Below, piece after piece: positions 45,363-64,000 of a stretch of DNA of 64,000 nt (the first letter of the stretch is position 1; the number at the start of each line of letters is the position of its first letter). The position numbers and the translations under genes were made by a program. Source of the DNA: Pseudomonadota bacterium (GTDB lineage: Bacteria > Pseudomonadota > Alphaproteobacteria > Micavibrionales > CSBR16-224). The stretch spans positions 611,179 to 675,178 of the forward strand of contig CP053449.1 in the NCBI GenBank assembly GCA_013285465.1, given 5' to 3'. The notes under the pieces were generated by a model, which worked only from the letters and a program-made list of their open reading frames with translations, ran no database searches and was not told the origin of the DNA.

Positions 45363-46169
45363 TTAGCGGCGTGTCGTGATCTGGAATGTGCTGTTCAGCA
45401 GATTGTTACAGCTATCCGGCAGAACGGTCGCACCGTTATCTTTCATGTGCTCACAATTTTGCAGCATTTGCTGATCGCGCTGGCTCAATGTCTGTGTGCC
45501 TGCGCCGTTATTGCCGGGCTGGTAATAAGAGCTGCCGCTGTTGTTCTGCTGCTCTTGTTGAAGCTTCATCGCTTCCAGTTGCAACCTCAATGCCTCGTTC
45601 TGCGCCTGCAAAAGTGCGAGCTGCTCATTCGGTCCGTTACGAATACTTTGAATTTCCTGCTGTACCTGAGTCTGTACGATCTGGCGCTCCATATTATATT
45701 GATCGCGTTGGCGCTGTGCTTCGATTTGCGCCTGTGTTTTGTTATCGGAACGGATGGAGCTGTTGACGGTGTGGCTGGGGCTTCTGTTGCCGGAGCCGCT
45801 ACGCGTATCAACCGAGATTGTACGGGTTGTAATCATGCCGCCGTTGCCACCGCCGCCATTGGCACCGCTACCGTTGATGATGGCTTCGCGCTGGGCGCTC
45901 TGATTCGCCGTTGTTCCGGTTTTATAGGTGGCATCACGTTCGTTACGGTCATGTTCCATACGTTCGCGTGCACTTTTAAATGCGCCGCCCAGCCAGGATT
46001 TGAGTGTTTTGTTGACTTCGGTGACAACTTCTTCTTTGACGCCGTCGCCGACGCTTTGCGCATGCGCTTGTGACGGGGCAAATGTCATAGCGCCGACTGT
46101 CAGGGCAACCCCGATCATCAGGCTATGCTTAAAATTTCTTCCAACATTACGGTATTTCTTCTGGTCCAT
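45363..46169 (-). CDS. Secreted Q/N-rich coiled-coil orphan protein
   Basis: A signal peptide ends 'SQAHAQ'. It is followed by a G/N-rich stretch and a glutamine-rich heptad region ('QAQIEAQRQRDQYNMERQIVQTQVQQEIQ'). Confidence 0.55.
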   Translation of the reverse strand: MDQKKYRNVGRNFKHSLMIGVALTVGAMTFAPSQAHAQSVGDGVKEEVVTEVNKTLKSWLGGAFKSARERMEHDRNERDATYKTGTTANQSAQREAIINGSGANGGGGNGGMITTRTISVDTRSGSGNRSPSHTVNSSIRSDNKTQAQIEAQRQRDQYNMERQIVQTQVQQEIQSIRNGPNEQLALLQAQNEALRLQLEAMKLQQEQQNNSGSSYYQPGNNGAGTQTLSQRDQQMLQNCEHMKDNGATVLPDSCNNLLNSTFQITTRR

Positions 46170-46296
46170 GACCCACACTCCCTTAAAGGCACAATTCCTG
46201 CATTTGCTCTATAAAGAACATAATACATGAACAGAGTGTATTTGTCAAGGTTTTGACATAATAAAAATGCGGGAACCGCATGAAAAGGGAAGATTT

Positions 46297-48294: not shown

Positions 48295-48412
48295 TTATTT
48301 TTATTTCTGCTTTCGTCCGGACTGAGGTCAGATTAACCTTTGATAAAACTGTATGCGAGATAATATAATATGAACGTCGTATTGAAAACAAGTACGGAAG
48401 CAACCGCCGAAT

Positions 48413-48796
48413 ATGGATCAGACTGAAAGAATACCCGCGCTGCGCACAATTGCGATGCCTGCTGACACCAATCCGCGCGGCGATATATTCGGGGGATGGT
48501 TGTTGTCACAGATGGATTTGGCCGGTAGTGTTCTGGCGCAAAAGACGGCAACACAGCGCGTGGCAACGGTCGGCGTACAGGCGATGACCTTCCACCAACC
48601 GGTGTTTGTCGGGGACGAGGTGAGCTGTTATACGGAGCTGGTACGTGTCGGCAATACCTCGGTGACGGTGCAGGTTGAAAGCTGGGCACGGCGTTGCGAC
48701 GAAGAAACGGAAATAAAAGTCACGGAAGGGCAGTTCACTTATGTCGCAATTGACGAGAATCGCCGCCCCGTGCAAATACCGAAAGACAGTACCTGA
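48413..48796 (+). CDS. Hotdog-fold acyl-CoA thioesterase (YciA-like)
   Basis: It contains 'PADTNPRGDIFGGWLLSQMDLAGS'. Confidence 0.85.
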   Translation: MDQTERIPALRTIAMPADTNPRGDIFGGWLLSQMDLAGSVLAQKTATQRVATVGVQAMTFHQPVFVGDEVSCYTELVRVGNTSVTVQVESWARRCDEETEIKVTEGQFTYVAIDENRRPVQIPKDST

Positions 48797-48814
48797 GAAT
48801 ACCGGAGGGGTAAA

Positions 48815-50071
48815 ATGACGCAGGAAAACGGAAAAATAAAATTTATCGGAAAAGCATTCTGCGTGATGGCGCTGGGGCTGTGTCTGGCGCTGGGCGGTTT
48901 TTCAGGCTCTGCCGCAGCATGGTCACTGAAGGGCATGAAACAATCGCGGGATCGCGATGCGATGCATCATGATGCCGCATCTTCCATCACCGATCTTTTT
49001 ACCAAGGATAAACCTGTCTCCGCAGTTGAGAGTCTTGGCGATTTGCCGGATTTTAAAATCAAGGACGAGGCAAGCTTCCAGAAATACACGGTGGAAATTC
49101 ACGAAGTTCCCTATAACGAGACCACGCTATCCTATCGGTTGCGTCTTCCCGAAACATGGGACAAAAGAACACAGCATATGGAGCAGGGTGTCCAGCTGCA
49201 CAAAAGGCTGATGTCGCATATTACGACATTCATGGCACCGCCGATTGCCGATGTCCGCCCCTCTATGACCATTCAGGCCAAGAATCTGGAACATGAGATT
49301 GATGCGGCGCATTGGCTGCGCCATTATCTGCTGGTCAACGGTTTTACCTTGAGCGGTGAAGTCGAGGGCAAGGATCTGCGCAATGCAAATGCGCATTTCG
49401 TCTATGTGCGTGACGAGGCGGCCTATGCCGGATATGCCCGCGCCATTTTTCACGGCAATATGGTGACGCTGGCGCGTTTTGATGTGCCGCAGCGTTTTGT
49501 CAAATGGTATAGTGTTTTGCAGAAACAGGCTGTGGATACGCTTGCGCTGGTCTTTCCCAAATCCGGTACGATTGAAGAATGGCGCCGCGATAATCTGGGC
49601 GGCGAATTGCTGGAAATGCAATACCCGGCCAGCTGGGTGCGCAACCGTACCCGTTACAACGAAGACGGTATTAAAACAAGTTTTGAACTGCATAATCAGG
49701 CGGAAGAAAATAAGGTTTTCGGGCTGATGCATTTTACCGCCATTAAACGTTCCAAAGATACGGATTTGCCAACGGAAATAGAAATTCTTAAGAAAAGTCT
49801 TGAGGAGGTCTACGGGTTGTATGTCAAGGAAATCAAATCATCCCAGCCAAGCTACGGGCCGCTGGAATTCGATTATATCCGGGAAGAAATTTATATTGTC
49901 GGTTTTGAGGCTGAACGGGGAATTCAGGATCAGGAGCTGCGGCTGCTGGTGATGGCGGATAGCAAATGGTATGTGATCTTTTACATGATGACACCGCTGG
50001 AAGCGAATGACTTCTATAACTGGGCGCGTAATATGCGCGCCTATGCCATCATTAAGGATAGTTTTCTGTAA
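48815..50071 (+). CDS. Secreted orphan protein (418 aa)
   Basis: It has the signal peptide 'FCVMALGLCLALGGFSGSAAAW' and no family I recognise. Confidence 0.55.
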   Translation: MTQENGKIKFIGKAFCVMALGLCLALGGFSGSAAAWSLKGMKQSRDRDAMHHDAASSITDLFTKDKPVSAVESLGDLPDFKIKDEASFQKYTVEIHEVPYNETTLSYRLRLPETWDKRTQHMEQGVQLHKRLMSHITTFMAPPIADVRPSMTIQAKNLEHEIDAAHWLRHYLLVNGFTLSGEVEGKDLRNANAHFVYVRDEAAYAGYARAIFHGNMVTLARFDVPQRFVKWYSVLQKQAVDTLALVFPKSGTIEEWRRDNLGGELLEMQYPASWVRNRTRYNEDGIKTSFELHNQAEENKVFGLMHFTAIKRSKDTDLPTEIEILKKSLEEVYGLYVKEIKSSQPSYGPLEFDYIREEIYIVGFEAERGIQDQELRLLVMADSKWYVIFYMMTPLEANDFYNWARNMRAYAIIKDSFL

Positions 50072-50090
50072 GATTGCATGCGGGTATGTA

Positions 50091-51245
50091 TCAGGGAAGC
50101 GGGAAGAATTTGACCTTGCCGCCCTTGATGGCCACGGCCAGCTCGCCGTGTTTCAAGGCCAGCGCTTTCTGCCCGAAAATATCGTAACGCCAGCCCCGCA
50201 TAGCCGGAACATCGGCGCGGTCATTCTGGGCGATCTCTTCCAGATCCTGCGCATTGGCCAGCAGTTTCGGGGCGATTTTGTGTTCTTCACAGGTGTATTT
50301 CATCAACACACGCAGCAATTCGATAATGGCGGCGGCCTGATCTGATAAGCCGCGGCTTCTTTGCGGTTGCGGAATATCCGCAGGCGGTTTCGCTTTTTTG
50401 ATTTTGTCCAGCAGCAGATCAAGATCTTTTGAAGCGATATCTTTCGGGAAGCGGCGGATTTTGTCGAAATCATCGCGGGTGTTGATCTTGTGCATGGCAA
50501 GATTTTGCATGACATCATCGCGCATGATACGTGTGCGCGGACGGTTCTGGCGTTGCGCGACTTCCTCACGCCATTCCGCCAAAGCCTGCAGGCGGGCGAT
50601 GACATCTTTTTTCTCGGTGCGGATTTTCAGGCGTTTCCATGCGTTTTTCGGGTCGGCATCATAGGTTGCGGGGTTCAGAAGAGCCTCGTGATCTTCGGCA
50701 ATCCATTCCGCACGCCCGCTTTCCTCCAGCATGGGGGCCATTTTGATGTAAATGTCGCGCAGATAGGTCACATCCGACAAGGCGTAATCCAGCTGCTGCG
50801 GGTTCAATGGACGTTTTTTCCAATCGGTGAAACGCGAGCTTTTATCAATGGCTTTCCCCAGAAAGCTTTTGACCAGTTTCTCATAGCCGATCTGGTCACC
50901 GAATCCCAAGACCATGCCGGCGATTTGCGTATCAAAGACGGAAACAGGCATTTTATCGAATTCGTGATAGAAAATCTCGATATCCTGACGGCAGCCATGC
51001 ATGACTTTCAGGATTTTTTTATTCATCAGCAGCGCATGAAAGGGGGCAAGATTGATATCCTCGGCCAGAGGATCAATCGCGGCATAGTTCTTTTTGTCAC
51101 TGCCTGCGGCAATCTGTATCAGGCACAGTTTGGACCAATAGCTGCTGTCGCGGATAAATTCCGTATCAACGGTTATAAAGCTCTCTTTTTGTAGCCCGTC
51201 ACAGAATTTTTTCAGGTCGGCTTGCTGTGTGATGGTTTTTGTCAT
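50091..51245 (-). CDS. rnd: Ribonuclease D
   Basis: DEDD exonuclease motifs 'ITVDTEFIRD', 'KVMHGCRQDIE' and 'YALSDVTYL' are present, with an HRDC-like C-terminus. The start is trimmed to 51245. Confidence 0.9.
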   Translation of the reverse strand: MTKTITQQADLKKFCDGLQKESFITVDTEFIRDSSYWSKLCLIQIAAGSDKKNYAAIDPLAEDINLAPFHALLMNKKILKVMHGCRQDIEIFYHEFDKMPVSVFDTQIAGMVLGFGDQIGYEKLVKSFLGKAIDKSSRFTDWKKRPLNPQQLDYALSDVTYLRDIYIKMAPMLEESGRAEWIAEDHEALLNPATYDADPKNAWKRLKIRTEKKDVIARLQALAEWREEVAQRQNRPRTRIMRDDVMQNLAMHKINTRDDFDKIRRFPKDIASKDLDLLLDKIKKAKPPADIPQPQRSRGLSDQAAAIIELLRVLMKYTCEEHKIAPKLLANAQDLEEIAQNDRADVPAMRGWRYDIFGQKALALKHGELAVAIKGGKVKFFPLP

Positions 51246-51353
51246 TATTTTCGCAAGAAGTGTTGGAAACTGAGGTAATTTATACTTTGTTTTATAGCAT
51301 GCCATGCTAGATTAGCATAGGCGGAATATTAGAGCCACGAAGGAGGTTCCCCA

Positions 51354-53687
51354 ATGAATAAAGACCGGCTATACCAAAGCGCGCTGGAATACCATATGCA
51401 CCCGAACGGCCCCGGGAAAATCACCATCAACCCGACGAAAGCATTGGTGACGGCACGGGATTTGTCTCTGGCCTATTCCCCGGGCGTGGCGGCACCTTGC
51501 GAGGAAATCGCGGCAGACCCTGATAAGGCACGTGATTATACTGTGCGCGGCAATCTTGTCGCCGTGGTCACAAACGGGACGGCTGTTCTGGGACTGGGCG
51601 ATATCGGCCCGCTGGCGGCCAAGCCGGTGATGGAGGGGAAGGCGGTTCTGTTTAAGAAATTCGCGGGGCTGGATTCCATTGATATCGAAATTGACGAAAA
51701 AGATGTCGATAAGCTGGTTGATATTATTGCCTCGCTTGAGCCAAGCTTTGGCGGTATCAATCTGGAAGATATCGCGGCGCCTGAATGTTTCGAGGTGGAA
51801 AGACGTCTGCGCGAACGCATGAAAATTCCGGTCTTCCATGATGACCAGCACGGCACGGCGATTATCGTCGGCGCGGCCTTTACCAATTGGCTGCATCTGT
51901 CGGGGCGCGATATCAATGATGTCAAATTGGTCGCTTCGGGCGCAGGTGCGGCATCACTGGCTTGTCTGAATATTCTTGTCGGTCTGGGGCTGCCGCGGGA
52001 AAACGTGTTTGTAACCGATCGTGCCGGCGTTGTTTATAAAGGCCGTAATGAAGGTATGGATGTCTATAAAGCGCCTTATGCACAGGAAACCGATGCCCGA
52101 ACTCTGGCAGAGGTTATTAAGGGGGCGGATGTGTTCCTCGGCCTGTCGGGGCCGAATGTGATGAACAAATCCATGGTGAAATCCATGAATGACGCACCGT
52201 TGATTATGGCGCTGGCCAATCCCGTGCCGGAAATTATGCCGGAGGATGTCCGTGCGGTCAGCCCGGATGCCGTGATCGCGACAGGGCGCTCTGATTATCC
52301 GAACCAGGTGAATAATGTGCTGTGTTTCCCTTATATTTTCCGCGGAGCATTGGATGTCGGCGCGACGACGATCAATGAGGAAATGAAACTTGCCTGTGTC
52401 AACGCCTTGGCAAGACTGACCCGTGCCGAGGTCGGGGCAGAGGTCGCGCGTGTCTATAATGATGAAACGCTGGAATTCGGCCCTGAATATATTATCCCCA
52501 AACCTTTCGATCCGCGTCTGGTGGTCGAGCTGCCGATGGCGGTCGCGCAAGCGGCAATGGATAGCGGCGTGGCGACACGCCCGATCAAAGATTTTGCGGC
52601 CTATCGCAACCATTTGCGCGGCTATGTCTTTAAATCCGGCCAGTTAATGAGCCCGGTCTATGCGAAGGCATCGGACAGTCCGAAACGCGTTGTTTTTGCC
52701 GAGGGTGAGGAATTCCGTGTGCTGCATGCCACGCAAACGATTGTGGATGACGGTATGGCTTTCCCGATTCTGATCGGACGGGAATCCGTTATTCTTGAAC
52801 GCATCCGCCGTGCCGGTCTGCGCCTGAAACCGGGTAAGGATTTCGAGCTGATCAATAACGAGTTTGATCCGCGTTATGATGAATATTGGCAGACCTATTA
52901 CCAATTGCGTGCCCGTAGCGGCATTACGCCGGCCATCGCCAAAACCCATGTGCGGACGCGTGATACGCTGATCGGTGCGCTGATGCTGCACAAGAACGAA
53001 GCTGATGCGATGATCTGCGGCACGATCGGGCGTTACAATGCACATTTTGAAAATATCATCCATACCGTCGGGCTGCGCGAGGGTCTTACACATGCCGCGG
53101 CGTTGAATGTTCTGATTATGCCGACCGGTACATATTTCATCTGTGACGCCTATGTGAACCCCGATCCGACGGCAGAGGAAATCAGCGAGATGGTGATGCT
53201 GGCGGTGGAGCAAATCCGTCATTTCGGGATTACCCCGCGTGTTGCGCTGTTGTCGCATTCCAATTTCGGCAGCCATGATTATCCCTCGGCGCAGAAAATG
53301 CGTCTGGCCGCAAAATTGATCCGTGACCAAAACCCCGATTTTGAAGTTGATGGTGAAATGGCGGCGGATACGGCGCTGTCTGAACGTATCCGTGATTTGA
53401 TCTTCCCGGATTGCGGTTTGACGGAGACGGCGAATTTGCTGGTGATGCCCAATATTGATGCGGCAAATATCTCTTTCAACATGTTGAAAGTGCTGAGCGA
53501 TGCCGTTGTGATCGGTCCCTTGCTGCTGGGAACAAAAAAACCCGCCCATATTCTGACACCGTCTGTGACGGCGCGCGGTATCGTCAATGCGACGGCTGTG
53601 GCGACGGTCGGTGCGCAGAGTCAGGGCAGTATGGTACTGGAAACGCAGAAACCGGCGAAGCCTGCGCGTAAGCGCAAGAAGGCCTAA
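51354..53687 (+). CDS. maeB: NADP-dependent malic enzyme with a C-terminal phosphotransacetylase-like domain
   Basis: Motifs 'VVTNGTAVLGLGDIG' and 'FGGINLEDI' are present, with the NAD(P) site 'SGAGAAS'. A ~330-aa PTA-like C-terminal domain follows. Confidence 0.95.
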   Translation: MNKDRLYQSALEYHMHPNGPGKITINPTKALVTARDLSLAYSPGVAAPCEEIAADPDKARDYTVRGNLVAVVTNGTAVLGLGDIGPLAAKPVMEGKAVLFKKFAGLDSIDIEIDEKDVDKLVDIIASLEPSFGGINLEDIAAPECFEVERRLRERMKIPVFHDDQHGTAIIVGAAFTNWLHLSGRDINDVKLVASGAGAASLACLNILVGLGLPRENVFVTDRAGVVYKGRNEGMDVYKAPYAQETDARTLAEVIKGADVFLGLSGPNVMNKSMVKSMNDAPLIMALANPVPEIMPEDVRAVSPDAVIATGRSDYPNQVNNVLCFPYIFRGALDVGATTINEEMKLACVNALARLTRAEVGAEVARVYNDETLEFGPEYIIPKPFDPRLVVELPMAVAQAAMDSGVATRPIKDFAAYRNHLRGYVFKSGQLMSPVYAKASDSPKRVVFAEGEEFRVLHATQTIVDDGMAFPILIGRESVILERIRRAGLRLKPGKDFELINNEFDPRYDEYWQTYYQLRARSGITPAIAKTHVRTRDTLIGALMLHKNEADAMICGTIGRYNAHFENIIHTVGLREGLTHAAALNVLIMPTGTYFICDAYVNPDPTAEEISEMVMLAVEQIRHFGITPRVALLSHSNFGSHDYPSAQKMRLAAKLIRDQNPDFEVDGEMAADTALSERIRDLIFPDCGLTETANLLVMPNIDAANISFNMLKVLSDAVVIGPLLLGTKKPAHILTPSVTARGIVNATAVATVGAQSQGSMVLETQKPAKPARKRKKA

Positions 53688-54715
53688 GGTACGGAAAAGA
53701 GCGTCAGCGTGGCCAGATGGTCGCTGCCGATGGCGGGCAGCGCCGTGAATTCCAGTAGCCGGATATCACCTTTATAGAAAACATGGTCAATCGGAATACG
53801 CAGCAGATGCGGGATCATCAGATTCTCCGTCTTGAACCGTGTCGGAAGCGGCACATAAACCGGCCATGTCGGGTATAAGCCGCGCCCGTTGCGGGCATTT
53901 CGCAATTCTGTTTTGCGCAGAAAGCTTTTATAGGAGGGTGTATACATTGTCATGTTCATATCACCCGCGACAATCACCGGCCCGTCCTGCGCCTGCTGCA
54001 GGGATGCGGCAACCCCGTCCATATAGCTGTCACGGTGTTTGAAGCGCATTTTCGAGACCGGCGATAACGGATGCAGCGAGGCAATCAGAATATCCCGGTC
54101 GTTGACTGTGATGCGGAACAGGATGGCAGGGTGCGTGTCCGTTGCCGGATACAGGCTTTCCTGCTGTGTAAATTCATAACGTGACAGGACCAGCATGCCG
54201 TTACTGCCCGGCTTGGCCTGATCAATCATATAGGGCCAGCCGTCTTTTGCCGCCGTCAATTCTTTTAAGGCATCCCGCCATTCCGGTGTGGCCTCGGCAA
54301 TTGTGATAAGATCGGGTTTGTATTTATGGATGAAATGCAGCAACACGTCATGTTTCCGGTTGAATTTGAAGACATTGACCTGCATCAGCCTTAGTATCGG
54401 CGCATCGGCGTTATCAACCGCCTTTTGCGGACGCGGCATATAAGGGGCAAGCGAGGCGCCGCTTAGCAAAAGCGCAAGAAGGGACACGCCCAGAAACTGC
54501 TGCAGAATGCGGTTTTTTCGCCGTGTTTTTTTGCACCATAACAGCGCGGCAACCGAAAATAACAGCAAGGACAGTACAAAATAATAGCTTTGGAAATGTG
54601 CAATCAGGTCAAAAAACCAGAGTGACAGCGGCAGAAAAGGAATCAGGCAGGCCAGCAGCAGGAAATAGAGGCTGCCCAGCATGAAACTGCCGCAAAGATT
54701 TTTTATTATCCGCAT
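53684..54715 (-). CDS. Endonuclease/exonuclease/phosphatase (EEP) family membrane protein
   Basis: N-terminal TM helices are followed by EEP-like blocks ('LRLMQVNV', 'PDLITIAE', 'VIVAGDMN', 'SDHLA'). It overlaps the maeB stop by 4 nt. Confidence 0.75.
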   Translation of the reverse strand: MRIIKNLCGSFMLGSLYFLLLACLIPFLPLSLWFFDLIAHFQSYYFVLSLLLFSVAALLWCKKTRRKNRILQQFLGVSLLALLLSGASLAPYMPRPQKAVDNADAPILRLMQVNVFKFNRKHDVLLHFIHKYKPDLITIAEATPEWRDALKELTAAKDGWPYMIDQAKPGSNGMLVLSRYEFTQQESLYPATDTHPAILFRITVNDRDILIASLHPLSPVSKMRFKHRDSYMDGVAASLQQAQDGPVIVAGDMNMTMYTPSYKSFLRKTELRNARNGRGLYPTWPVYVPLPTRFKTENLMIPHLLRIPIDHVFYKGDIRLLEFTALPAIGSDHLATLTLFSVP

Positions 54716-54890
54716 GTTTTATTACGTTTTTTTTCTGATTTTTATATGATTCCATTAAATCTTAAAGGCTTTGAGGAAAACTTACCAATTTTTTCCGGCT
54801 GTTTTACTTTTCTTAAGGTTTTTTTGAGATCATATAATCATGGAAAACTGCGCTGTTTCTGTGGTTTTCCGCCTGTCGCAAGGGGGAGAA

Positions 54891-56657
54891 ATGCACAAAA
54901 TTCTTCAAAAATCATCCTATCTGGGCATTGTTTTCAGCTTATTTCTGCTGACGGCCTGTGTGCATCAGGATGCCCGGACGAACAGCTCCGAATATGCCGC
55001 AACGCCCTCTTATCTGGATAACCGTCAAGCCACGCTGACCGGTGCTTATCTGGCGGGACGTTTTGCGCAAAACCAAAGCGACTGGAGCGCGGCCAATTAT
55101 TACATGAATCAGGTTCTGGGCATGGATGACGGTAATAAAAACCTGCTGCACCGGAGCTTTCTGCTGGCACTTGGCGACGGGGATATGGATCGTGCCCTGC
55201 CTTTGGCGCGACAATTGGTTGCAGGCGGTGAAAATGCCGAACTGGCAACGGTTATTCTGGTCGCCGATGCCATGGGGCGCGGCGATGCGCAGGCTGCATG
55301 GGGCTATACTGAAATGTTGAATGGCGGCGGCTTTAACGAATATGCCAAGCCGCTGTTTCAGGCATGGGTGCTGGTAATGCAGGAGGATATTCCGGCGGCG
55401 CTGGAAAAAGTCACCGCGCAGATTGAAACCTTTAACCGTGATCCGGTGTATCTGTTGCACAGCGCATTAATTGCGGAATATCACGGCGATAAGAAACAGG
55501 CGGAAGATTATTATCTGGAGGTTATGGCTGCAGAAGATTACACCGTTTATGCGGCTTTGACGGCGGCCAGCTTTTACGAGCGGGACGGGCGGACGGAAAA
55601 AGCCAAGCTGATTTACGGCCAGTTGAATGAAAAACGTAACCCTTACCGCGTCTTGTCACTCTCGCATATGGCGGAGGTTGTCGGGAAATCCGCATCTGAC
55701 CCGCGTGATGCCGTATCTTTGCTGTTGTTCGAGCTGGCAACATTATTATATGAACGCGAAGCCTATGACAGCGCGCTGATTTACACGCGTCTGGCGGAAG
55801 TGCTGACACCGCAGTCTCCTTTTGTGGCGATGATGCTGGGGGATATTGCGCTGCATTACGGCGATTATCATGCGGCGCGTAAATATTATACCGCCGTCGG
55901 GGATGAATCGGGCATGATGCGTTTTGCGCGGCTGAAACTGGCGGAAGCGCTGGAGGCGGGCGGGCATCAGGATGAGGCGGTTGCGATTTTGTCGGATGCC
56001 GCAGATGAAGAAGAAAGCTATGCCGACAGTCTGATTTATCTGGGCGATATTTACCGCCGGAATGAACAATATGCCGAAGCCGTGCGTGCCTATAGCCGTG
56101 CGCTGGGGCGGATCGGCGATGTGAAATCCGAACACTGGTTTGTTGTTTACGCACGCGGCATGTCGCAGGAGCGTCTGAAAAACTGGGATATGGCTGAGCA
56201 GGATTTGCTGAAAGCGCTGGATTTGAACCCCGAAAATCCGCTGGTATTAAATTATTTGGGCTATAGCTGGGTCGATCAGGGGCTGCATCTTGAGCGTGCG
56301 ATGGAAATGATCAAAAAGGCTGTGATGTTGCGCCCGGAAGACGGCTATATCACTGACAGTTACGGCTGGGCGCTGTATCAGACCGGCGCATTGGACGAAG
56401 CGGTGAAATGGCTGGAATATTCTGTTGAACGCGTGCCTTATGATGTGACCATTAATGACCATCTCGGTGATGCCTATTGGCGTGTCGGTCGCCGTGTCGA
56501 GGCACGTTTCCAGTGGGAACGCGCCTATAATTTGGCAAAAGCCAAGAGCGACAAGGAACGTATTTACCGCAAACTGGAAGCCGGCTTGCCGGGGCAAAAT
56601 CCGGGAAAACAGCCGAAAACAGTCACGGCGGAACGCGAAGCCATGCTTCACCGCTAA
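54891..56657 (+). CDS. TPR-repeat lipoprotein
   Basis: AGGGGGAG is followed by the ATG at 54891. The lipobox is 'LLTAC', and multiple TPR units are present ('AEQDLLKALDLNPENPLVLNYLGYSW'). Confidence 0.75.
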   Translation: MHKILQKSSYLGIVFSLFLLTACVHQDARTNSSEYAATPSYLDNRQATLTGAYLAGRFAQNQSDWSAANYYMNQVLGMDDGNKNLLHRSFLLALGDGDMDRALPLARQLVAGGENAELATVILVADAMGRGDAQAAWGYTEMLNGGGFNEYAKPLFQAWVLVMQEDIPAALEKVTAQIETFNRDPVYLLHSALIAEYHGDKKQAEDYYLEVMAAEDYTVYAALTAASFYERDGRTEKAKLIYGQLNEKRNPYRVLSLSHMAEVVGKSASDPRDAVSLLLFELATLLYEREAYDSALIYTRLAEVLTPQSPFVAMMLGDIALHYGDYHAARKYYTAVGDESGMMRFARLKLAEALEAGGHQDEAVAILSDAADEEESYADSLIYLGDIYRRNEQYAEAVRAYSRALGRIGDVKSEHWFVVYARGMSQERLKNWDMAEQDLLKALDLNPENPLVLNYLGYSWVDQGLHLERAMEMIKKAVMLRPEDGYITDSYGWALYQTGALDEAVKWLEYSVERVPYDVTINDHLGDAYWRVGRRVEARFQWERAYNLAKAKSDKERIYRKLEAGLPGQNPGKQPKTVTAEREAMLHR

Positions 56658-56688
56658 AACAGATACCGCAGGGATGAAGCGATATAAG

Positions 56689-56718
56689 AAAACGGCCTTT
56701 ATCAGTAAAGGCCGTTTT
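56689..56718. terminator. Bidirectional terminator between the TPR gene and icmT
   Basis: The hairpin is AAAACGGCCTTTA-TCAG-TAAAGGCCGTTTT. Confidence 0.6.
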
Positions 56719-56743
56719 GCTGTGATCCGTTTTTTTTAATCTG

Positions 56744-57043
56744 TTATTCCTGATCGCCCAATTTGCGGCGGTCTGTCCAGAAATAAGCCGGGCGCTTCGG
56801 CCCGATGAGCCAGACACGCATGGCGCGTAAAGCAGCCGTAAAGGTCAGGCCTTTGCGCTCCAGCAGCCAGAAGGTAATATTCACCAGAAGAAAGACGGCA
56901 ATCGTCCATTTCCGCGGAAACAGAACAACCAGCAGCAGAACAAGGCCGGCACGCGCATCAAAACGCCAGAAACGCGGAGTCTTCTGGCTGTTACGCCAGT
57001 GCCATGTTTGAATCAGGACGACTTCCGTTTCTTCTTTCGCCAT
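56744..57043 (-). CDS. icmT: Type IVB secretion protein IcmT (TraK-like)
   Basis: The 99-aa protein has the hallmark 'WHWRNSQKTPRFWRFDARA' followed by two TM helices. It sits directly downstream of dotB. Confidence 0.85.
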   Translation of the reverse strand: MAKEETEVVLIQTWHWRNSQKTPRFWRFDARAGLVLLLVVLFPRKWTIAVFLLVNITFWLLERKGLTFTAALRAMRVWLIGPKRPAYFWTDRRKLGDQE

Positions 57044-57114
57044 GGGATTACCTTTATGCTTTGCGTTGTTTCAACAGCTTTTAATATTGTAGCAGGCAAG
57101 CGTTAAGAAATATT

Positions 57115-58359
57115 TTAATGCCCGCCACCGCCGGCGCGAAACTCTTCGACCTCTTCGCCGCGGGCGCGGCGCGCATCATCTTCTTCCTGAATTTTTCGCA
57201 GACCTTCGGCGCTTTGTACATAGGTCAGCAGGTGACGGCGGTCAATCAAGCCTTCGTCATATGCCTGACGTGCGGAAAACTCCATACTGCGGCCATGTTC
57301 GGGAACCATATTCATTAAGCGGCTGGCCCATTCCTCGAAGTTACAGCTCAGCATTTCCTCGCGGATTTCCTCGGTGAATTCCATCCACTCCCTTAAGCCC
57401 ACACGGCCGCCGCCGATACGCGGTGCCAGCGTTTGCGTCACAATCAGACGCAGGGTTTCCATCAGCGAGTAGGCACGCTCAACCCGCTCGGCAGGTTCAA
57501 AGCTTGAAATCATACGACGGACGGTCGCGGCAACGCCGGTGGTGTGAACCGTGGCATAAACGGTGTGACCCGTTTGCCCGGCTTCAATAGCGGCGGAAAT
57601 GGTTTCACGGTCACGCGCCTCACCAACCAGAATGATTTCCGGCTTCCGGCGCAGGGCGTTCCGGACACCATGAGCAAAACTTTCAAGGTGGCGCGGAATT
57701 TCCGACTGCCCGATCAGGCTTCGTTTACTGATAATCGTATCATAGGTGAACTCGATCGGCGCCTCATAGGTCAGCATCTTGCCGCAACCATGCGGACGTT
57801 CCAGCATCATGCGGTTTCCGGCGGCCAGCAGCGTTGATTTACCACTACCCGTCGGGCCTGTCACCAGAACAAGCCCCTGACGAGGGTGCCAGGCCTGTTT
57901 GATTTCTTCCTCGATACCCAGCTGTTCCATTGTCGGCGGTTCACTCGGCAGGACACGCATTGTGACCTGTGCACCGTCACGGCCGTCAGCCAGAATGGCC
58001 GTGATGTTGACACGGAAACGCTGGCGGTTCCAACGGTCGATCATGACTTCATAGGACAAATCGATATCACGGCCACCGGCCAGAAGCGCGAGAGCCTCAA
58101 CGCCGTAGAGTTTGGTGATAATGGCATTCATATCCGCCGCATCAAGCGGACGGAAGGTTGCAGGGTAAAGCGTGCCGTGAATCTCGTTATAGACGGGACG
58201 TGCCGATTGGAAGGTGATATCACTCGAATCTTTCCGGACACACCAGAGAAGAAACGGGTCAACATGATCCTCTTGGAAACGATCCGGTTCTTCCGGATAA
58301 GTTTCCTTGATATCATCTTTACCTTTTTTTAGAAGACTTACCGGTCTGCGGGCTGCCAT
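57115..58359 (-). CDS. dotB: Type IVB secretion ATPase DotB (PilT-like, TraJ-like)
   Basis: It has Walker A 'VTGPTGSGKSTLLAA', the Asp/His box region 'ILVGEARD' and 'TGHTVYATVHT'. It overlaps the dotC end by 22 nt. Confidence 0.85.
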   Translation of the reverse strand: MAARRPVSLLKKGKDDIKETYPEEPDRFQEDHVDPFLLWCVRKDSSDITFQSARPVYNEIHGTLYPATFRPLDAADMNAIITKLYGVEALALLAGGRDIDLSYEVMIDRWNRQRFRVNITAILADGRDGAQVTMRVLPSEPPTMEQLGIEEEIKQAWHPRQGLVLVTGPTGSGKSTLLAAGNRMMLERPHGCGKMLTYEAPIEFTYDTIISKRSLIGQSEIPRHLESFAHGVRNALRRKPEIILVGEARDRETISAAIEAGQTGHTVYATVHTTGVAATVRRMISSFEPAERVERAYSLMETLRLIVTQTLAPRIGGGRVGLREWMEFTEEIREEMLSCNFEEWASRLMNMVPEHGRSMEFSARQAYDEGLIDRRHLLTYVQSAEGLRKIQEEDDARRARGEEVEEFRAGGGGH

Positions 58360-59270
58360 TCTTCATAACCTGTCTTGAACTCGGATTGTCCGGTAATGCG
58401 CAGAGCGCGGTCACCGACACGCAATTCATCCTTACCGCCTGTCACACCGCGGTCTTCGTGAAGGGCATAGGGCTCGGAAATCATGCCTTGCGCTACCATC
58501 ATGCGGTAGCGAACCATCCCGTTGAAATCGGCAACAAGACGTTCAAGATTGCTTTCAAAAATCTGATTGGCCTGCTCTATGCCCGCTTTCCAGCCGCGTT
58601 CGAAGGCGGCATCCCATCGTGCAGATTCTTTCGGCGATTGCGGCCAAAGAATTTGCGGCGGCGGTTCGATCTCGACATCCCAATAGGGCTGGATATATTG
58701 ACGCCAGTTGCGCGGTGCCGTCACAATCTGCGCATTTTTCTGAATATTGTAAATACGGTCAGCCACAGCAGCTTCGATACCGCCTTTGCTGACAATCAGG
58801 GCGTTTTCCGCCTCGGATACAATCGGTGCCTCAATCAGCAAACCTGAAGGGGCGCGCATCAAAAGCCGTCTGAAATCGAAGACTTCATCCAGCGATTTTT
58901 CATGACCGCTTAATTCCTCGGCGATTTCATGGCTGCGGAACGAGAGCCCGCCGCGCGCGCCGTAAGACAGGGCGGCTTCTTCTTGCGCCTCGGTACGGAT
59001 ATCAAGAGAAACGGTATCATTGACAACGCCGGTAATTTCCATGGCGGCAGCAGGGCTGATGATCGGCGTTGTTGCACGCAATTGATCGCGGCTCAGCGGT
59101 GTTCCCGTTTTTTCAGGCGTTTTGGTTAGCGCCTCGGACTGGGCAAGCGCCCGGCGGTCAGCTTCGGTGAGCTCGGGTCTTTTATATTTGGAGCTGCATC
59201 CTGTAAGCGCCATAACGGCTGTCAGCGCCAAGGCTGTGCAAATCGAAGTCTTTTTTCTCATATGTGCCAT
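58338..59270 (-). CDS. dotC: Type IVB secretion outer-membrane lipoprotein DotC (TraI-like)
   Basis: The lipobox is 'MALTGC'. The blocks 'RNWRQYI', 'ERGWKAGIEQANQIF' and 'DRGVTGGKDELRVGDRALRIT' match my recollection of Legionella DotC. Confidence 0.85.
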   Translation of the reverse strand: MAHMRKKTSICTALALTAVMALTGCSSKYKRPELTEADRRALAQSEALTKTPEKTGTPLSRDQLRATTPIISPAAAMEITGVVNDTVSLDIRTEAQEEAALSYGARGGLSFRSHEIAEELSGHEKSLDEVFDFRRLLMRAPSGLLIEAPIVSEAENALIVSKGGIEAAVADRIYNIQKNAQIVTAPRNWRQYIQPYWDVEIEPPPQILWPQSPKESARWDAAFERGWKAGIEQANQIFESNLERLVADFNGMVRYRMMVAQGMISEPYALHEDRGVTGGKDELRVGDRALRITGQSEFKTGYEEWQPADR

Positions 59271-59294
59271 TCTTACAAACTTTCCGCGCTTTCT

Positions 59295-59798
59295 TTACAT
59301 TGATTCGTCAAATAACGAGACATAGCTGACTTCAACCGTACGGTTATCCGCATCGACGACAACATCCGCGCGGGTTCCGCCTTGCAGACCCAGATCACGC
59401 AAAACATCAATGACCGGTTTTTCAACAACATTCAGCGTCACAACGACCGGAACGGGCGGACGGATGCCGGCAACGTTAAAGTTATATCCGACGCGTTCGG
59501 CAAGACGTGCGGTGATTTGCTCGAGAGGACCGACCCAATCAACGGAGATGCTGCGCATCAGTTCGCGCGGCGCATCGGTCACCGGAGAAACATTTGCCAG
59601 CGGCGTGCGTGCCTGTTCGACGGCAGCGAGCGTTTCCAGCGCAGCGGATGCGCGGTCAACCGATGATGCCAAACGCAGTGAAACGGCATCAGGCTGCGCA
59701 ACCAGTTGATGACCGGTTGTCGGTTTAAAAGTGCAGCCCGAAAGCGCAATCATACCTGTCAAAGCCAGTGCCGTATAAAATGGGGTTGTCTTTTTCAT
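59295..59798 (-). CDS. dotD: Type IVB secretion lipoprotein DotD (TraH-like)
   Basis: The lipobox is 'IALSGC'. The blocks 'SVDWVGPLEQITARLA', 'PVPVVVTL' and 'DNRTVEVSY' are colinear with Legionella DotD. Confidence 0.85.
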   Translation of the reverse strand: MKKTTPFYTALALTGMIALSGCTFKPTTGHQLVAQPDAVSLRLASSVDRASAALETLAAVEQARTPLANVSPVTDAPRELMRSISVDWVGPLEQITARLAERVGYNFNVAGIRPPVPVVVTLNVVEKPVIDVLRDLGLQGGTRADVVVDADNRTVEVSYVSLFDESM

Positions 59799-59883
59799 CT
59801 TTGCCTCGTGTCCCTTAAAGATATTATGAGAAAGTGTGACTTTCCGCGTGAACGTACTTTATTAACAAAACATATTTTATCGT

Positions 59884-60306
59884 TTATCTCAAGCTGTTTT
59901 GCGTTTTCAACAGCCCTTGTCTGTGCATGGCAACAAAAACCTTCTGACGGTAGGGTAAACCATAGCGCGGCGTTTTGGAATGGTAGTGTGCAATTCCCGT
60001 ATAAAGACTGCCGGCATCGTCACTTTTTTTGCGCAAAATCCATGCGCCGACGGCGACATTGATGCAGCCGTCATCACGAACCCAGCGTTTTGCCGTGGAT
60101 TGCGGCACCTGCCAGTGCCGCGCCAGTTCCGGCATCCAGATTGTATTGATCTGCATGGGGCCAAGATCATAGGTGCCGTTGCTGTTACGCACCTGTTGTC
60201 CGACCTTGCCGCCTTCGACATGCAGGATGCCCACCAATACGGCAGGTGGAACGCCGTAGGTTTGCGAGGCAAGGAATATGCAGGTGGCTAAAGTGTTCGC
60301 AAGCAC
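59884..60306 (-). CDS. Soluble lytic transglycosylase-domain protein (T4SS-associated muramidase)
   Basis: The SLT catalytic region 'GILHVEGG' and 'YDLGPMQIN' are present, with the signal-like N-terminus 'MLANTLATCIFLASQ'. The start is GTG. Confidence 0.8.
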   Translation of the reverse strand: MLANTLATCIFLASQTYGVPPAVLVGILHVEGGKVGQQVRNSNGTYDLGPMQINTIWMPELARHWQVPQSTAKRWVRDDGCINVAVGAWILRKKSDDAGSLYTGIAHYHSKTPRYGLPYRQKVFVAMHRQGLLKTQNSLR

Positions 60307-60348
60307 TGTCGCACTCTCTGATAAAGGTTTATGTGTATAGCTTTAATA

Positions 60349-61335
60349 TTATCGGATGAAGTCGGATAATAGCAAGAGCGGATTATCAGGTTTCCCGATC
60401 AAAATTTTGATTTTGCTGTCGCTCGGGGACCGGTAAACGCTGAAAGGCGTTGTCCGCAATTTCCATTTCATCCAGATATCGGTATTTGCCGCGACTTTAT
60501 CGTAAGCGCTTTTATCGGTGATCTTGTCCTCTGACAAAGCGCTCTTGTCGCCGCCGGTATAGCTGCCCCATGCCTTTACGGGGTCGCTGACGGAAAGAAG
60601 AGCCGCGCTGGCGGTCTTATTATCGGCGGAGCTTCCGAAAGGCAGGATGCGTAACTGTATTGCGCCGCTGTCAATATGCGGCTTCAGGTCATTCCAATAG
60701 GCGATGCAATGCTCGCAGGTCGGATTCATGAATATATATATATAAGGGGCATTCGCATTGCCGACAGGAAACCAATCCGCCTGCTCCACGATACTGTAGA
60801 ATATTTCGGATTTGCCGGATTTCTTCGTGTCTTGTGCAGGTTTGTCAAATTTTTTGGAAGCGGCTTGCTGCGGAGCGGCGACCGGGGACGGAGCCGCTTT
60901 GACAGGGGCGGCAGCTTGTTTCGTGCCCCCGCTTTGTGCTGTGCCGCCGTCATCCGTCAGATTCAGCTTTTCAAGGAGGTTTTGCTGCGCCTCTTGTGTT
61001 AACGCCTGATCGGCCAGTTTGTTCCGCAGGGTTTGCGCCTGTTCTTGCGTGACGACCTCTTCCGAAGAGCTCATCAAAAGACCGAAGACAACGCCGCCTT
61101 CCGGTGTGGAATAGGCATAGCTTCTGCCGCCGTCAATATCGACGGCCCAGCCGTCCAGCCCGTATTTGTTTCCCAGGAAATGCAGTTTGCCGTTTTTTTG
61201 CGCAACGTAATTTGACAACAGTTCCGGCGGCTTTTTCGTTTGCGCCGCGGCGGGTTGCGGCACAAGAATCGACAGGCAGGCTGCAAAAAAGCCGAGTAAA
61301 AGATAGTTATACAGGGCAGTTTTTTTTCTGGTCAT
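60349..61335 (-). CDS. DsbC/DsbG-like periplasmic thiol:disulfide isomerase with an A/P/Q-rich linker (TrbB-like)
   Basis: The signal peptide ends 'PAAAQ'. A DsbC-type N-domain and the low-complexity linker 'KQAAAPVKAAPSPVAAPQQAASKK' precede a thioredoxin fold with CxxC 'NPTCEHCIAYW'. The start is trimmed to 61335. Confidence 0.75.
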   Translation of the reverse strand: MTRKKTALYNYLLLGFFAACLSILVPQPAAAQTKKPPELLSNYVAQKNGKLHFLGNKYGLDGWAVDIDGGRSYAYSTPEGGVVFGLLMSSSEEVVTQEQAQTLRNKLADQALTQEAQQNLLEKLNLTDDGGTAQSGGTKQAAAPVKAAPSPVAAPQQAASKKFDKPAQDTKKSGKSEIFYSIVEQADWFPVGNANAPYIYIFMNPTCEHCIAYWNDLKPHIDSGAIQLRILPFGSSADNKTASAALLSVSDPVKAWGSYTGGDKSALSEDKITDKSAYDKVAANTDIWMKWKLRTTPFSVYRSPSDSKIKILIGKPDNPLLLLSDFIR

Positions 61336-61665
61336 TGTGCTGTTTCCGTTTTCTTTCGTTAAATGTGACGGCTCAATATTAACATCACTTTGGCGGAGAT
61401 GACCATCATAAAAACAAAATGCCTGCCGGTTGGTATAAGCCATTTAATTGTAGACAAGCGGCTTTTTTGCGCTAAACTTTACGCCGCTTTCAGCAAATGC
61501 CTGAGATTCGGGCGGAAAAGATATTGCGTTATAAGACTGCAGAGGTCGATTCTTTTTTTGAATCTGTTAAATCCGATGTGACGCAATAAAAAGAATGTTT
61601 TTTGCCCTTTATAGCAACAAAACCCCAGTTTTTTTGCCGAAAAGACATAAAAATACAAAAAAGTC

Positions 61666-61694
61666 TTGACCTGAAAGCGGGAGTCTAGTAAATT
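61666..61694 (+). promoter_or_regulatory. Candidate sigma70-type promoter of the ClpA-like gene
   Basis: TTGACC (61666..61671), a 17-bp spacer and TAAATT (61689..61694) are present. GGAGG at 61754..61758 lies 9 nt upstream of the ATG at 61768. Confidence 0.45.
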
Positions 61695-61767
61695 CCATAA
61701 CTGTAGAACGAAAAAATTAAACATAATACCCGATAAAAACACAGAAACCAGTTGGAGGTTTAAGAAC

Positions 61768-64000
61768 ATGGCGAATAATTTTCACGGCCCTAGATACTTT
61801 GTTGACGCTAAGGAGAATATCCAATACGTCATTACTTTTTCCATGGGGCGTCCGGCAGAGATGGTGGCGCTTGATAGCAAGACAGGGATGCCGATTCCGC
61901 CGCAGGTCCTGTTCTCCGGCGACAATAAAGACAAATCCTTCACGGCTGTGGATGATGAAACGCTTGAAGTTTTCAGCATTAAAACACAGAACGTTCCCGG
62001 TATGGGGCTCGGTATTTCCGTAGAGCCGACCGGTCAGAATGTCGACAAACTGCCCGACCAGCACCCGACAGGTGCGGATGCGGCACGCCGTTTTGACGAT
62101 ACCCGCAAACAACAGGCCGAGCGTCTGAAAGACATGTTCGGCGGCTTGTTCGGCGGCGGCGATAAAGATCCTGATGAAAGCCCGTTCGGCGGTCTCGGCG
62201 ATCTGTTCGGCAATGGCGAGGACAATGACGATAACTGGACGCCGCCCAAGCGCGAGCCCGTTCAGGATACGACACCCCGCGGTCGCACCAAACCCGGTAT
62301 TAAAGGCGTTCCCAGCGGCGGCTACAAAGTTTCCGACAGCGCACTTGAAAAAGTTCTGCACAAATTCGGAACGGATCTGACCGAGCAAGCCATGAAAGGC
62401 GAGCTGGATCCGGTTGTCGGTCGTGATGAAGAGCTGAGCCAGCTGAAACAGTTCCTGCTGCGTAAAAACAAATCCAGCGTGAACATCCTTGGTGAGGCCG
62501 GTACAGGTAAAACCGCGATGTTCGATGCGCTGGCACAGGATATTGTTGCCGGTAAAGCGGAAGAAGAGCTGGCGGATGCCCGCGTTATCTCGCTGGACAT
62601 CACCGGTATGAACGCAACGGATCAGGCCAAATTCCGCGGCCAGTTCGAGAAAGAGCTGAAAAAAGTTCTGGACGGTCTGGAAGAGCGCGGCGGCTACATC
62701 AACGGTCAGAAAGTCATTCTGTGCTTGGACGAGATTCACTCGATCCTCGGCGCGGGTGCTGTTTCCGGTAACGAAGGCGGCGGCGCGGCACAGATCATGA
62801 AACCGTTCCTGGCGCGCGGATCGATTACCTGCATTGGTACGACAACGTTGAAAGAACACAAGAAATACATCGAAAAGGACGGCGCATTGAACCGTCGTTT
62901 CCAACCGCTGTATCTTGACGAAACCGATACGGATGCCACTTTGTTTATCTTGAGTAAAGTGAACGAGCATTACGGCAAGTATCACGGCATGGACACATTG
63001 ATGAATGAAGATCAAATGAAGAAAGTCGTCAAAATGACCGACCGCTTCATGCCCGCGCAGTACCAGCCGGATAAGTCGATCGGTGTTCTGGATGATGCGA
63101 TGGCGATTGCCCGTAAGGAAGGCCGCAAAGGCGTGACGGATGATGATATCATCACGGCTGTTTCCAAAGCGTCGAAACTGGATAAGAAATTCTTGAACCA
63201 GGATGACCATCAGCGCTTTATCGCTCTGGAAGAGCAGTTGCCGGAAATCGTTCTCGGACAGGATGAAGCTCTCGAAGCGGTCGGTGATCGCCTGATGTCG
63301 GCGCGTGCCGGTCTGACCGATCCGAACCAGCCTTGGGGCGCGTTCCTGTTCCTCGGTCCGACAGGTGTCGGTAAAACGGAAACCTGCTACGCTCTGGGTG
63401 AGCTGCTGCATGGTGACCGCGACTCCGTTATCCGGATCGATATGAGCAAATACAGTGAAAAACACGCGATTTCCGGTCTGATCGGTTCGCCTCCGGGCTA
63501 TGTCGGTCACGAAGATACGGAAGGCGAGTTCGAAAAAGTGCGTGAAAAGCCCTACAGTATCGTCGTCCTTGACGAGGTGGAAAAAGCGCATCCGGATGTC
63601 TTTAACGTGCTGCTGCCGATTTTGCAGGACGGTGAGATCGAAGACAGCCGCGGACGCAAGATTTCGTTCAAAAACACGATCATTGTGATGACGAGTAACC
63701 TGGGTGCCGGTAAAAGCGGTAAAACCATCGGTCACATCGCCAATAACGATGTCGAGGAAGATCGTAAACTGACTTACATGGCAGCTGCAAAATCGCAGTT
63801 CCGTCCCGAGCTGATCAACCGTATCAACATGCTTGGTGGTGTTCAGGTCTTTAACCGTCTGGACAAGCCGGTCATCGACAAACTGGTGAAACGTGAAGTC
63901 GAAAAAGTCGGCGCACGTCTGCAAGATGCATCCGGTGGCGGTCTGCAGCTGGAAAACATCACGCTGAAAGTGTCGGATGAAGTCCTCGCGATCCTGGGTG
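61768..64000 (+). CDS. ClpA-like double-AAA+ (Hsp100) ATPase with a non-canonical N-terminal region; 3' end truncated by the window edge
   Basis: I translated this frame by hand and found 744 codons with no stop; the ORF is missing from the track because it runs off the window. D1 has Walker A 'GEAGTGKT' (62491..62514), 'AKFRGQFE', Walker B 'ILCLDEIH' and 'ALNRRFQPL'. D2 has 'GPTGVGKT', 'GSPPGYVG', 'VVLDEVEKAH' and 'MTSNLG'. There is no ClpB-type M-domain. Confidence 0.85.
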   Translation, partial: MANNFHGPRYFVDAKENIQYVITFSMGRPAEMVALDSKTGMPIPPQVLFSGDNKDKSFTAVDDETLEVFSIKTQNVPGMGLGISVEPTGQNVDKLPDQHPTGADAARRFDDTRKQQAERLKDMFGGLFGGGDKDPDESPFGGLGDLFGNGEDNDDNWTPPKREPVQDTTPRGRTKPGIKGVPSGGYKVSDSALEKVLHKFGTDLTEQAMKGELDPVVGRDEELSQLKQFLLRKNKSSVNILGEAGTGKTAMFDALAQDIVAGKAEEELADARVISLDITGMNATDQAKFRGQFEKELKKVLDGLEERGGYINGQKVILCLDEIHSILGAGAVSGNEGGGAAQIMKPFLARGSITCIGTTTLKEHKKYIEKDGALNRRFQPLYLDETDTDATLFILSKVNEHYGKYHGMDTLMNEDQMKKVVKMTDRFMPAQYQPDKSIGVLDDAMAIARKEGRKGVTDDDIITAVSKASKLDKKFLNQDDHQRFIALEEQLPEIVLGQDEALEAVGDRLMSARAGLTDPNQPWGAFLFLGPTGVGKTETCYALGELLHGDRDSVIRIDMSKYSEKHAISGLIGSPPGYVGHEDTEGEFEKVREKPYSIVVLDEVEKAHPDVFNVLLPILQDGEIEDSRGRKISFKNTIIVMTSNLGAGKSGKTIGHIANNDVEEDRKLTYMAAAKSQFRPELINRINMLGGVQVFNRLDKPVIDKLVKREVEKVGARLQDASGGGLQLENITLKVSDEVLAILG

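Follow-up and report, generated by a model that had tools for sequence, protein, structure and literature searches.

A Dot/Icm-type gene block conserved on the chromosomes of Micavibrio-like Alphaproteobacteria

To our knowledge, the Dot/Icm machine has been studied almost solely in the Legionellales, where this type IVB secretion system (T4BSS) injects hundreds of effectors into eukaryotic cells. Counterparts of its genes are known from conjugation systems with a type I mating-pair formation apparatus (MPF_I). In IncI1 (R64-type) plasmids, four of them stand in the order traH(dotD)-traI(dotC)-traJ(dotB)-traK(icmT), with a TraK of 96 aa in an IncI1 plasmid, and the same DotD-DotC-ATPase-IcmT order is found in MPF_I plasmids of Acetobacter, Beijerinckia and Bosea. 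The present analysis concerns a block of six genes in a 64,000-nt stretch of the chromosome of an uncultured member of the Micavibrionales (contig CP053449.1 of assembly GCA_013285465.1, positions 611,179 to 675,178), the whole of which is called the window below. The block contains dotD, dotC, dotB and icmT, preceded by a gene for a DsbG-like protein and one for a lytic transglycosylase with an SLT domain. It is probably one of several chromosomal sites that together encode a functional Dot/Icm-type system for protein translocation. This system has most likely been inherited vertically in a large alphaproteobacterial clade that includes Micavibrio.

The machine type itself is well known, and its presence in the Micavibrionales was already flagged once, in passing. 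MacSyFinder assigned a system called pT4SSi to seven marine Micavibrionales metagenome-assembled genomes (MAGs), which is reported in one sentence in the accessible part of the paper (Needham et al. 2022, PMC9418006). The call stood for IcmB and at least six accessory genes without a relaxase. It very probably concerns the same system family as the window, whose nearest relatives are often labelled Micavibrio; the accessible part of the report gives no anatomy of the system and does not show the window's MAG among its seven (PMC9418006). According to the genome paper on Micavibrio aeruginosavorus ARL-13, there was no evidence for a type IV secretion system in that strain (2011, PMC3189940). 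This statement is contradicted by the complete genome of M. aeruginosavorus HCB189, which holds the cluster together with dotI. No further discussion of the Micavibrionales system beyond the sentence of 2022 was found in the literature searched, which describes neither how the system is built nor that it is inherited vertically throughout the clade and occurs in cultured M. aeruginosavorus.

All six open reading frames (ORFs) that the first-pass annotation had predicted on the minus strand are present and co-oriented (Table 1). Read 5' to 3' in gene order, the spacing across the block is 42, 85, 24, -22 and 71 nt, the negative value being an overlap of dotC and dotB; these figures reproduce the overlap and the gaps of 24-85 nt given earlier. 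The predicted identities of DotD, DotC, DotB and IcmT were put to profile hidden Markov model searches and were confirmed, with strong backing from the profiles for all four and from PDB structures for DotB, DotC and DotD. For DotB, the TIGR02524 model (1.4e-109) was clearly ahead of the models for TraJ (3.3e-72) and PilT (2.6e-65). The structure of L. pneumophila DotB (6GEB, 1.1e-96) was likewise matched better than 6GEF (4e-61) and PilT (2e-46). Walker A (GPTGSGKST), Walker B and the His-box are all intact in the protein, and both Walker motifs align to 6GEB. DotD matched PDB entries 6x62 and 3ady at about 3e-18 (2.7e-18 for 6x62), and a profile of the clade's DotC found L. pneumophila DotC (6x62) at 1.3e-53. 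IcmT scored 76 bits against the IcmT_TraK model (1.6e-21; cutoff 40) and carries a precomputed Pfam assignment to PF28014 IcmT_2, with no match in the Pfam release used for the profile search. The NCBIfam scores of DotB (366 vs 463) and DotD (100 vs 140) lie under the equivalog cutoffs. As for the first gene of the block, its product has a signal peptide, an N-terminal region of the dimerisation type, a low-complexity Ala/Pro linker and a thioredoxin domain with a CEHC motif. Residues 171-320 match the DsbG model NF008657 (5.6e-28), and E. coli DsbG was found among PDB structures at 3e-15 (1v57/2h0h).

The block is highly conserved in related bacteria. One genome per species was scanned with a DotC alignment, which returned 337 genomes, and the best 80 of them were examined. 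Alphaproteobacterial MAGs, many of which bear the label Micavibrio, account for nearly all of them, and M. aeruginosavorus HCB189 is represented by its complete genome; the record titles agree with the alphaproteobacterial host proposed earlier. The order DsbG-SLT-DotD-DotC-DotB-IcmT was kept in 80/80 related loci with enough flank, and the DsbG-like gene comes first in all relatives. The family assignments of the six genes are far beyond chance. The 22-nt overlap of dotC and dotB is identical in all eight relatives' loci in which both genes were called. Elsewhere, the junction is a 4-nt overlap (alphaproteobacterial plasmids) or a 135-nt gap (Legionella adelaidensis). In a relative from a different genus level with 81% DotC identity (535-kb contig), the flanking genes are exactly those of the window. 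Identity of the SLT protein among relatives ranges from 51 to 96%.

The ratio of nonsynonymous to synonymous substitution rates (dN/dS) was computed between the window and a relative with 95% DotC identity (L006). It amounts to 0.13 for the DsbG-like gene, 0.046 for SLT, 0.036 for dotD, 0.052 for dotC, 0.035 for dotB and 0.038 for icmT. The block is under strong purifying selection. Because of the conserved order and overlap, the identical flanks and the low dN/dS, the block can be regarded as a stable, selected and vertically inherited chromosomal locus and not as a decaying fragment.

The surroundings of the block are those of a core chromosome. Genes in the window include dnaA, gyrB, folD, fabF/acpP, prs, pth, ychF, rnd, ispG and the gene for malic enzyme; ribosomal protein genes and flhA lie just beyond its ends. 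Genes such as dnaA and gyrB are frequently located near the chromosomal replication origin. GC content is even along the whole window, and the stretches about 4-10 kb past both ends hold housekeeping and flagellar genes only. Among the Pfam calls for the window's genes, there was no relaxase, in line with the earlier remark that none was visible, nor any type IV coupling protein (T4CP), integrase, rep/par or toxin-antitoxin gene. The window contains no tRNA gene and no Rfam match, and promoter and terminator scans were uninformative. Its sequence matches contigs of MAG GCA_016743515.1, a 607.6-kb TARA scaffold and several further assemblies. In GCA_016743515.1, the two ends of the window (1-27000 and 46000-64000) fall on separate contigs, RBMU01000011.1 and RBMU01000006.1, so that the assembly behind the window is a more contiguous one of the same organism.

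DotD, DotC, DotB and IcmT are orthologous to those of the Legionella system, the genes are chromosomal in both cases and no relaxase is seen; the closest DotB to that of the window is the one of L. adelaidensis (47% identity). The host here is, in contrast, alphaproteobacterial and not a member of the Legionellales. The strict Legionellales organisation has separate regions I (dotDCB, dotA-icmVWX) and II (icmT to icmB) and comprises IcmS, IcmW, IcmR and IcmQ, whereas icmT is here joined to the dotDCB block, directly 3' of dotB. Indeed, dotD-C-B of L. adelaidensis are followed by dotA-icmV and icmW-icmX with no adjacent icmT, which bears out the earlier statement that Legionella keeps icmT apart. 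Unlike in Legionella, the operon here includes the DsbG-like and SLT genes. The L. adelaidensis record used for this comparison (L089, NZ_LR134433.1) is deposited in PLSDB as 'Legionella adelaidensis plasmid 24', of 365 kb. It carries rpoH, ftsEXY, ribosomal and cytochrome bc1 genes besides Dot/Icm region I, and it looks like a mislabelled chromosome fragment.

As for MPF_I conjugation systems, the order of the last four genes corresponds to traH-I-J-K, as the first-pass annotation had proposed, in the IncI1 plasmid and in the alphaproteobacterial plasmids alike. The transfer regions of MPF_I plasmids, including that of Shinella, also hold SLT and thioredoxin-fold genes, so that the suggested parallel between the DsbG-like gene and plasmid TrbB-like genes stands. 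The proposed equivalences of Dot/Icm and IncI genes are sound, since plasmid orders and accessory genes agree with them. In the Acetobacter and Beijerinckia plasmids, an SLT gene lies just 3' of icmT, its product being 38-41% identical to that of the window; the SLT gene is upstream of dotD here and downstream of icmT there. The Shinella plasmid has a thioredoxin-fold gene beside dotI, with a weak match to the DsbG-like protein around the active site. Identities are low throughout, at 27-33% to IncI1 proteins (TraI 27%, TraJ 31%) and 29-42% to alphaproteobacterial plasmid proteins (DotC 29-42%, DotB vs TraJ 32-39%). For IcmT, the best matches in the plasmid collection were IcmT proteins on large alphaproteobacterial replicons of Methylorubrum and Bosea (44-53%). 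Unlike IncI1, the window locus has no relaxase, oriT region, thin-pilus genes, exclusion gene or adjacent plasmid or integrative and conjugative element (ICE) backbone, and it occupies a fixed chromosomal site across the clade. The dotD-C-B-icmT order is the generic MPF_I order and implies no affinity to IncI.

Other core T4BSS genes are found elsewhere on the chromosomes of relatives, as expected for the system split across loci that had been suggested, and limited checks revealed no relaxase with them. In M. aeruginosavorus, a DotI/IcmL gene lies about 8 kb past icmT. The IcmB of the clade was reached by tblastn of Shinella plasmid MPF_I proteins on the DotC loci, which gave dotI, and then by a DotI search, which gave loci running from dotI to icmB. 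An IcmB search with a profile of five plasmid sequences listed only plasmid and Legionellales-like matches, two of which, P0226 and P0238, proved to lie in mobile-element contexts. A representative search with an IcmB profile comprised 150 clusters. The second locus of the relatives reads dotI-dotH-dotG-dotF-(TraQ/IcmC-like)-128 aa-dotN-icmB, with support from PF11393, PF12293, PF03743, NF033900 (2e-45), NF038218 (5e-11) and NF038221 (3e-26). It equals the IncI1 order traM-N-O-P-Q-R-T-U and matches the order icmL-K-E-G-C-D-J-B of Legionella region II, with which the relatives also share dotM/dotL. On the chromosomal contig of one subclade, icmB is followed by dotM, a 181-aa gene and dotL (DotM PF23127; DotL-like T4CP PF12696). 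The clade IcmB has 991 aa; its identity is 42% with the Legionellales type, 38% with an IcmB from an alphaproteobacterial plasmid and 27% with IncI1 TraU.

A metagenome scan with the clade IcmB and two peptide patterns gave 124 matches, of which 80 were listed. Together with two further loci (L104 and L105), they make up 82 IcmB loci, in which DotN was found in 62, the TraQ-like protein in 58, DotF, DotG, DotH and DotI in 29-33, DotM in 18 and DotL in 13. A MobF query, the one relaxase family used, found no match in these loci. On an 889,960-bp Micavibrio contig, DotC and IcmB are about 20 kb apart (L046, L130). Several subclades, including marine TARA contigs, have traQ-like-128aa-dotN-icmB alone, with no dotI-H-G-F upstream (Table 1); lineages thus differ in how the system is split. 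Ten ORFs next to icmB in four loci were scanned against NCBIfam. Six of them are housekeeping genes (HslVU, UbiH, YidC, YsxC, AlaS) and four have no family match, and no relaxase or mobile-element gene is among the ten. Large ORFs near icmB that were screened for DotA turned out to be YidC, AlaS and one 953-aa ORF without family match. No match to Legionella IcmW, IcmV or DotA was obtained in the clade loci examined; IcmS, IcmR and IcmQ were not searched for.

Relatives outside the window's own lineage often have further genes beside the block, an addition not shared with Legionella. In most of them (L010-L085), icmT is followed by a gene for a protein rich in Pro and Ala that has a TcpQ domain at its C-terminus (PF10671; STN is matched weakly) and then by 2-4 tandem paralogues for secreted, Cys-containing proteins of about 450 aa. 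The paralogues resemble TraW/IcmX, with hhalign probabilities of 96.8% against the protein in the TraW position of the Shinella plasmid and 74% against IncI1 TraW. The identity of this family (c0) was reached by profile comparison only, and its match to Legionella IcmX is weak. Neither c0 nor two other neighbour families of the relatives (c4, c9) has a homologue in the window or a match in NCBIfam or PDB. The locus of M. aeruginosavorus HCB189 has the genes for DsbG, a 336-aa protein, SLT, DotD, DotC, DotB, IcmT and the TcpQ protein, and continues with flgL-flgK, two TraW-like genes and dotI. In Micavibrio proper (L044-L085), an extra conserved gene of about 340 aa lies between the DsbG-like and SLT genes. 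It had no match in Pfam, NCBIfam or PDB.

Several results weigh against a functional multi-locus system in the window's lineage. Neither the 64-kb window nor the stretch of about 10 kb past each end yielded another T4BSS gene, and icmB/dotO, dotG, dotH, dotI, dotF and dotN of the window's genome were found neither there nor in the listed metagenome loci. JGI samples containing the window's lineage exist, and no contig of the window's species is among the 80 listed of the 124 metagenome IcmB matches (tetranucleotide r <= 0.90, vs >= 0.98 within the same genome). The TcpQ-domain gene and the TraW-like paralogues, adjacent to icmT in most relatives, have no homologue in the window. DotA/TraY gave no tblastn match in any clade locus with Legionella and Shinella queries and is not among the ten ORFs next to icmB. 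The missing T4BSS genes, the missing icmT neighbours and the missing metagenome contig would all suit an orphan block, in which the rest of the machine was lost from the window's lineage and the six genes are disappearing or have been co-opted, e.g., for an outer-membrane complex driven by a PilT-like ATPase. Such a loss is unlikely. The six genes are all intact, two members of the lineage give a dN/dS of only 0.035-0.13, and synteny is perfect in a third member with 81% DotC identity. The negative results cover the window, its near flanks and the metagenome loci listed, which is less than the whole genome. Furthermore, several other subclades likewise split the system over distant loci, and we know of no role for DotB, DotC or DotD outside a T4BSS.

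A conjugative element, either an MPF_I (IncI-like) plasmid or an ICE that had integrated or what remains of one, would transfer DNA and is a still weaker candidate. The traH-I-J-K order would fit it, the accessory genes of MPF_I transfer regions typically include SLT and thioredoxin-fold genes, and many alphaproteobacterial plasmids hold the same four-gene module. It is nevertheless highly improbable in view of the mobility genes missing from the window, the flat GC content, the core-gene flanks conserved between genera and the fixation of the locus across the clade. Plasmid homologues are merely 27-42% identical, and both DotB and IcmB are nearer to the Legionellales type. The literature also gives no relaxase for the Micavibrionales systems, as far as the accessible part of the source goes (PMC9418006). 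A plain mis-assignment, i.e., an ordinary PilT and unrelated lipoproteins, could draw on the fit of DotB to the PilT family and on the IcmT without a match in the Pfam release used. It is ruled out, with next to no probability left to it, by the specific matches of DotC, DotD, DotB and IcmT: the DotB model scored 146 bits over the PilT model, the PDB match to DotB was 50 orders of magnitude better than that to PilT, and DotC, DotD and IcmT, each with specific matches, co-occur in canonical order.

If the block is part of a working Dot/Icm-type machine, as favoured here, its products may act together as follows. The DsbG-like isomerase, exported by Sec, would correct the disulfides of periplasmic components, and the SLT enzyme would open the peptidoglycan locally for assembly of the machine. 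The lipoproteins DotD and DotC would nucleate the outer-membrane core complex with DotH, DotG and DotF, which the window's genome would encode elsewhere. IcmT would be positioned in the inner membrane, and a DotB hexamer may dock on the DotO/IcmB ATPase to power assembly and substrate transfer. Given a DotL/DotM coupling complex and no relaxase, the machine would translocate proteins and not DNA into the contacted cell. Bacterial prey might be the target, as in the case of Micavibrio; alternatively, the ankyrin, Sel1 and TPR genes nearby might point to a eukaryotic host.

The window had been described as full of ankyrin and Sel1 proteins. Such genes are indeed present, but their number is small: of roughly 55 genes, three encode ankyrin proteins, one a Sel1 protein and one a TPR protein. 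One of the ankyrin genes encodes 800 aa, and the TPR gene (605 aa) adjoins icmT. In Legionella and Coxiella, ankyrin proteins are among the classic substrates of Dot/Icm; as effectors or as pointers to a eukaryotic host, the ankyrin, Sel1 and TPR neighbours are only suggestive. In an intermediate subclade (L013, L017, L019, L025, L028, L047), arrays of ankyrin paralogues lie immediately upstream of the DsbG gene. Ankyrin genes beside a T4BSS cluster are odd for a lineage thought to prey on bacteria. As for possible hosts, JGI sample 3300037558 (Ga0314846), which contains the window's organism, also yielded a 'gamadvirus' contig. A published phylogeny shows this group next to the haptophyte virus Pleurochrysis sp. 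endemic virus 2, which hints at an alga-associated sample.

Two further neighbours deserve mention. A full type I secretion operon, encoding a TolC-like outer-membrane efflux protein (OEP), an ABC exporter with a C39 peptidase domain and an HlyD/AprE-type adaptor, adjoins an ankyrin-like gene. Divergent to the cluster is a gene of the Hsp100 type, cut by the end of the window. Its product resembles ClpB, with two AAA+ modules and a ClpB_D2-small domain but without a Clp_N domain, and its N-terminal stretch of about 200 aa had no PDB match. It scores far under the cutoff of every Hsp100 subfamily (ClpB 560 vs 1232, ClpV 471 vs 885). Between the window and the intermediate subclade, identity of the protein is 44-47%, and the gene is still near the T4BSS cluster in about 17 relatives' loci; the protein may be a secretion-associated unfoldase. 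A 735-aa ORF with a TTG start on the opposite strand was rejected as a gene, being an antisense shadow of the Hsp100-type gene.

Table 1. Coordinates of the six-gene block, of other window features and of features in related loci (nt; gene models in the window unless a locus is named)
Feature	Locus	Coordinates	Strand	Remarks
DsbG/DsbC-like periplasmic thiol:disulfide isomerase	window	60349..61335	-	alternative upstream start at 61443 (longer ORF)
TrbN/IagB-like small SLT-domain lytic transglycosylase	window	59884..60306	-	PF01464 (1.3e-05); NF010463 TrbN model (1.6e-28)
DotD/TraH outer-membrane lipoprotein	window	59295..59798	-	PF16816 (2.8e-34); NF033882 (1.2e-28); lipobox LSGC
DotC/TraI outer-membrane lipoprotein	window	58338..59270	-	PF16932 T4SS_TraI (9e-72); lipobox LTGC; 3' end overlaps dotB by 22 nt
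DotB, PilT-family hexameric secretion ATPase	window	57115..58359	-	TIGR02524; PDB 6GEB
IcmT/TraK small inner-membrane protein	window	56744..57043	-	NF038220; last gene of the block
Whole six-gene block	window	56744-61335	-	
dnaA	window	42217-43710		
gyrB	window	46297-48294		
Ankyrin, Sel1 and TPR genes	window	5026-5820 (-), 20824-21501 (+), 27634-30036 (-), 38404-39153 (-), 54840-56657 (+)		
Type I secretion operon	window	21618-26570	+	
Hsp100-type gene	window	61768-64000	+	cut by window end; complete in L002, 3896-6592
Rejected 735-aa ORF	window	61717-63924	-	antisense to Hsp100-type gene
M. aeruginosavorus HCB189 locus	L065 (NZ_CP195303.1)	6594-20681		
Extra gene of about 340 aa in Micavibrio proper (example)	L065	7625-8635		
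TcpQ/TraW-like region (example)	L013	12302-13618		
TcpQ/TraW-like region (example)	L028	13836-19182		
TcpQ/TraW-like region (example)	L065	12413-13804		
Solitary traQ-like-128aa-dotN-icmB	L136, L156, L158, L159, L162, L167, L180, L183			

M. aeruginosavorus is a model 'leeching' (epibiotic) predator of Pseudomonas. One possible, though doubtful, extension of the above is that the T4BSS is an ancestral, chromosomally fixed trait of the Micavibrio-like clade and the contact apparatus by which the epibiotic predators inject proteins into their prey. The window's own lineage is marine and has many ankyrin, Sel1 and TPR genes; there, a eukaryote such as an alga or protist may have become the new host at which the machine is aimed. 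If this were true, the clade-specific additions, namely the DsbG and SLT genes of the operon, the TcpQ protein, the tandem TraW/IcmX-like paralogues and the divergent Hsp100-type AAA+ gene, would adapt a Legionella-type injector to a new target.

For annotation, the dotD-C-B-icmT order with an SLT and a DsbC/G-like gene is to be read as an ancestral MPF_I module and no sign of a plasmid. The locus belongs to a second lineage of the Dot/Icm machine, apparently vertical and chromosomally fixed in a widespread alphaproteobacterial clade, and supplies an outgroup for tracing the relationship between T4BSS that inject proteins and conjugation systems of the IncI type. Moreover, it provides a concrete candidate for the apparatus by which these bacteria may prey on other cells or interact with a host.

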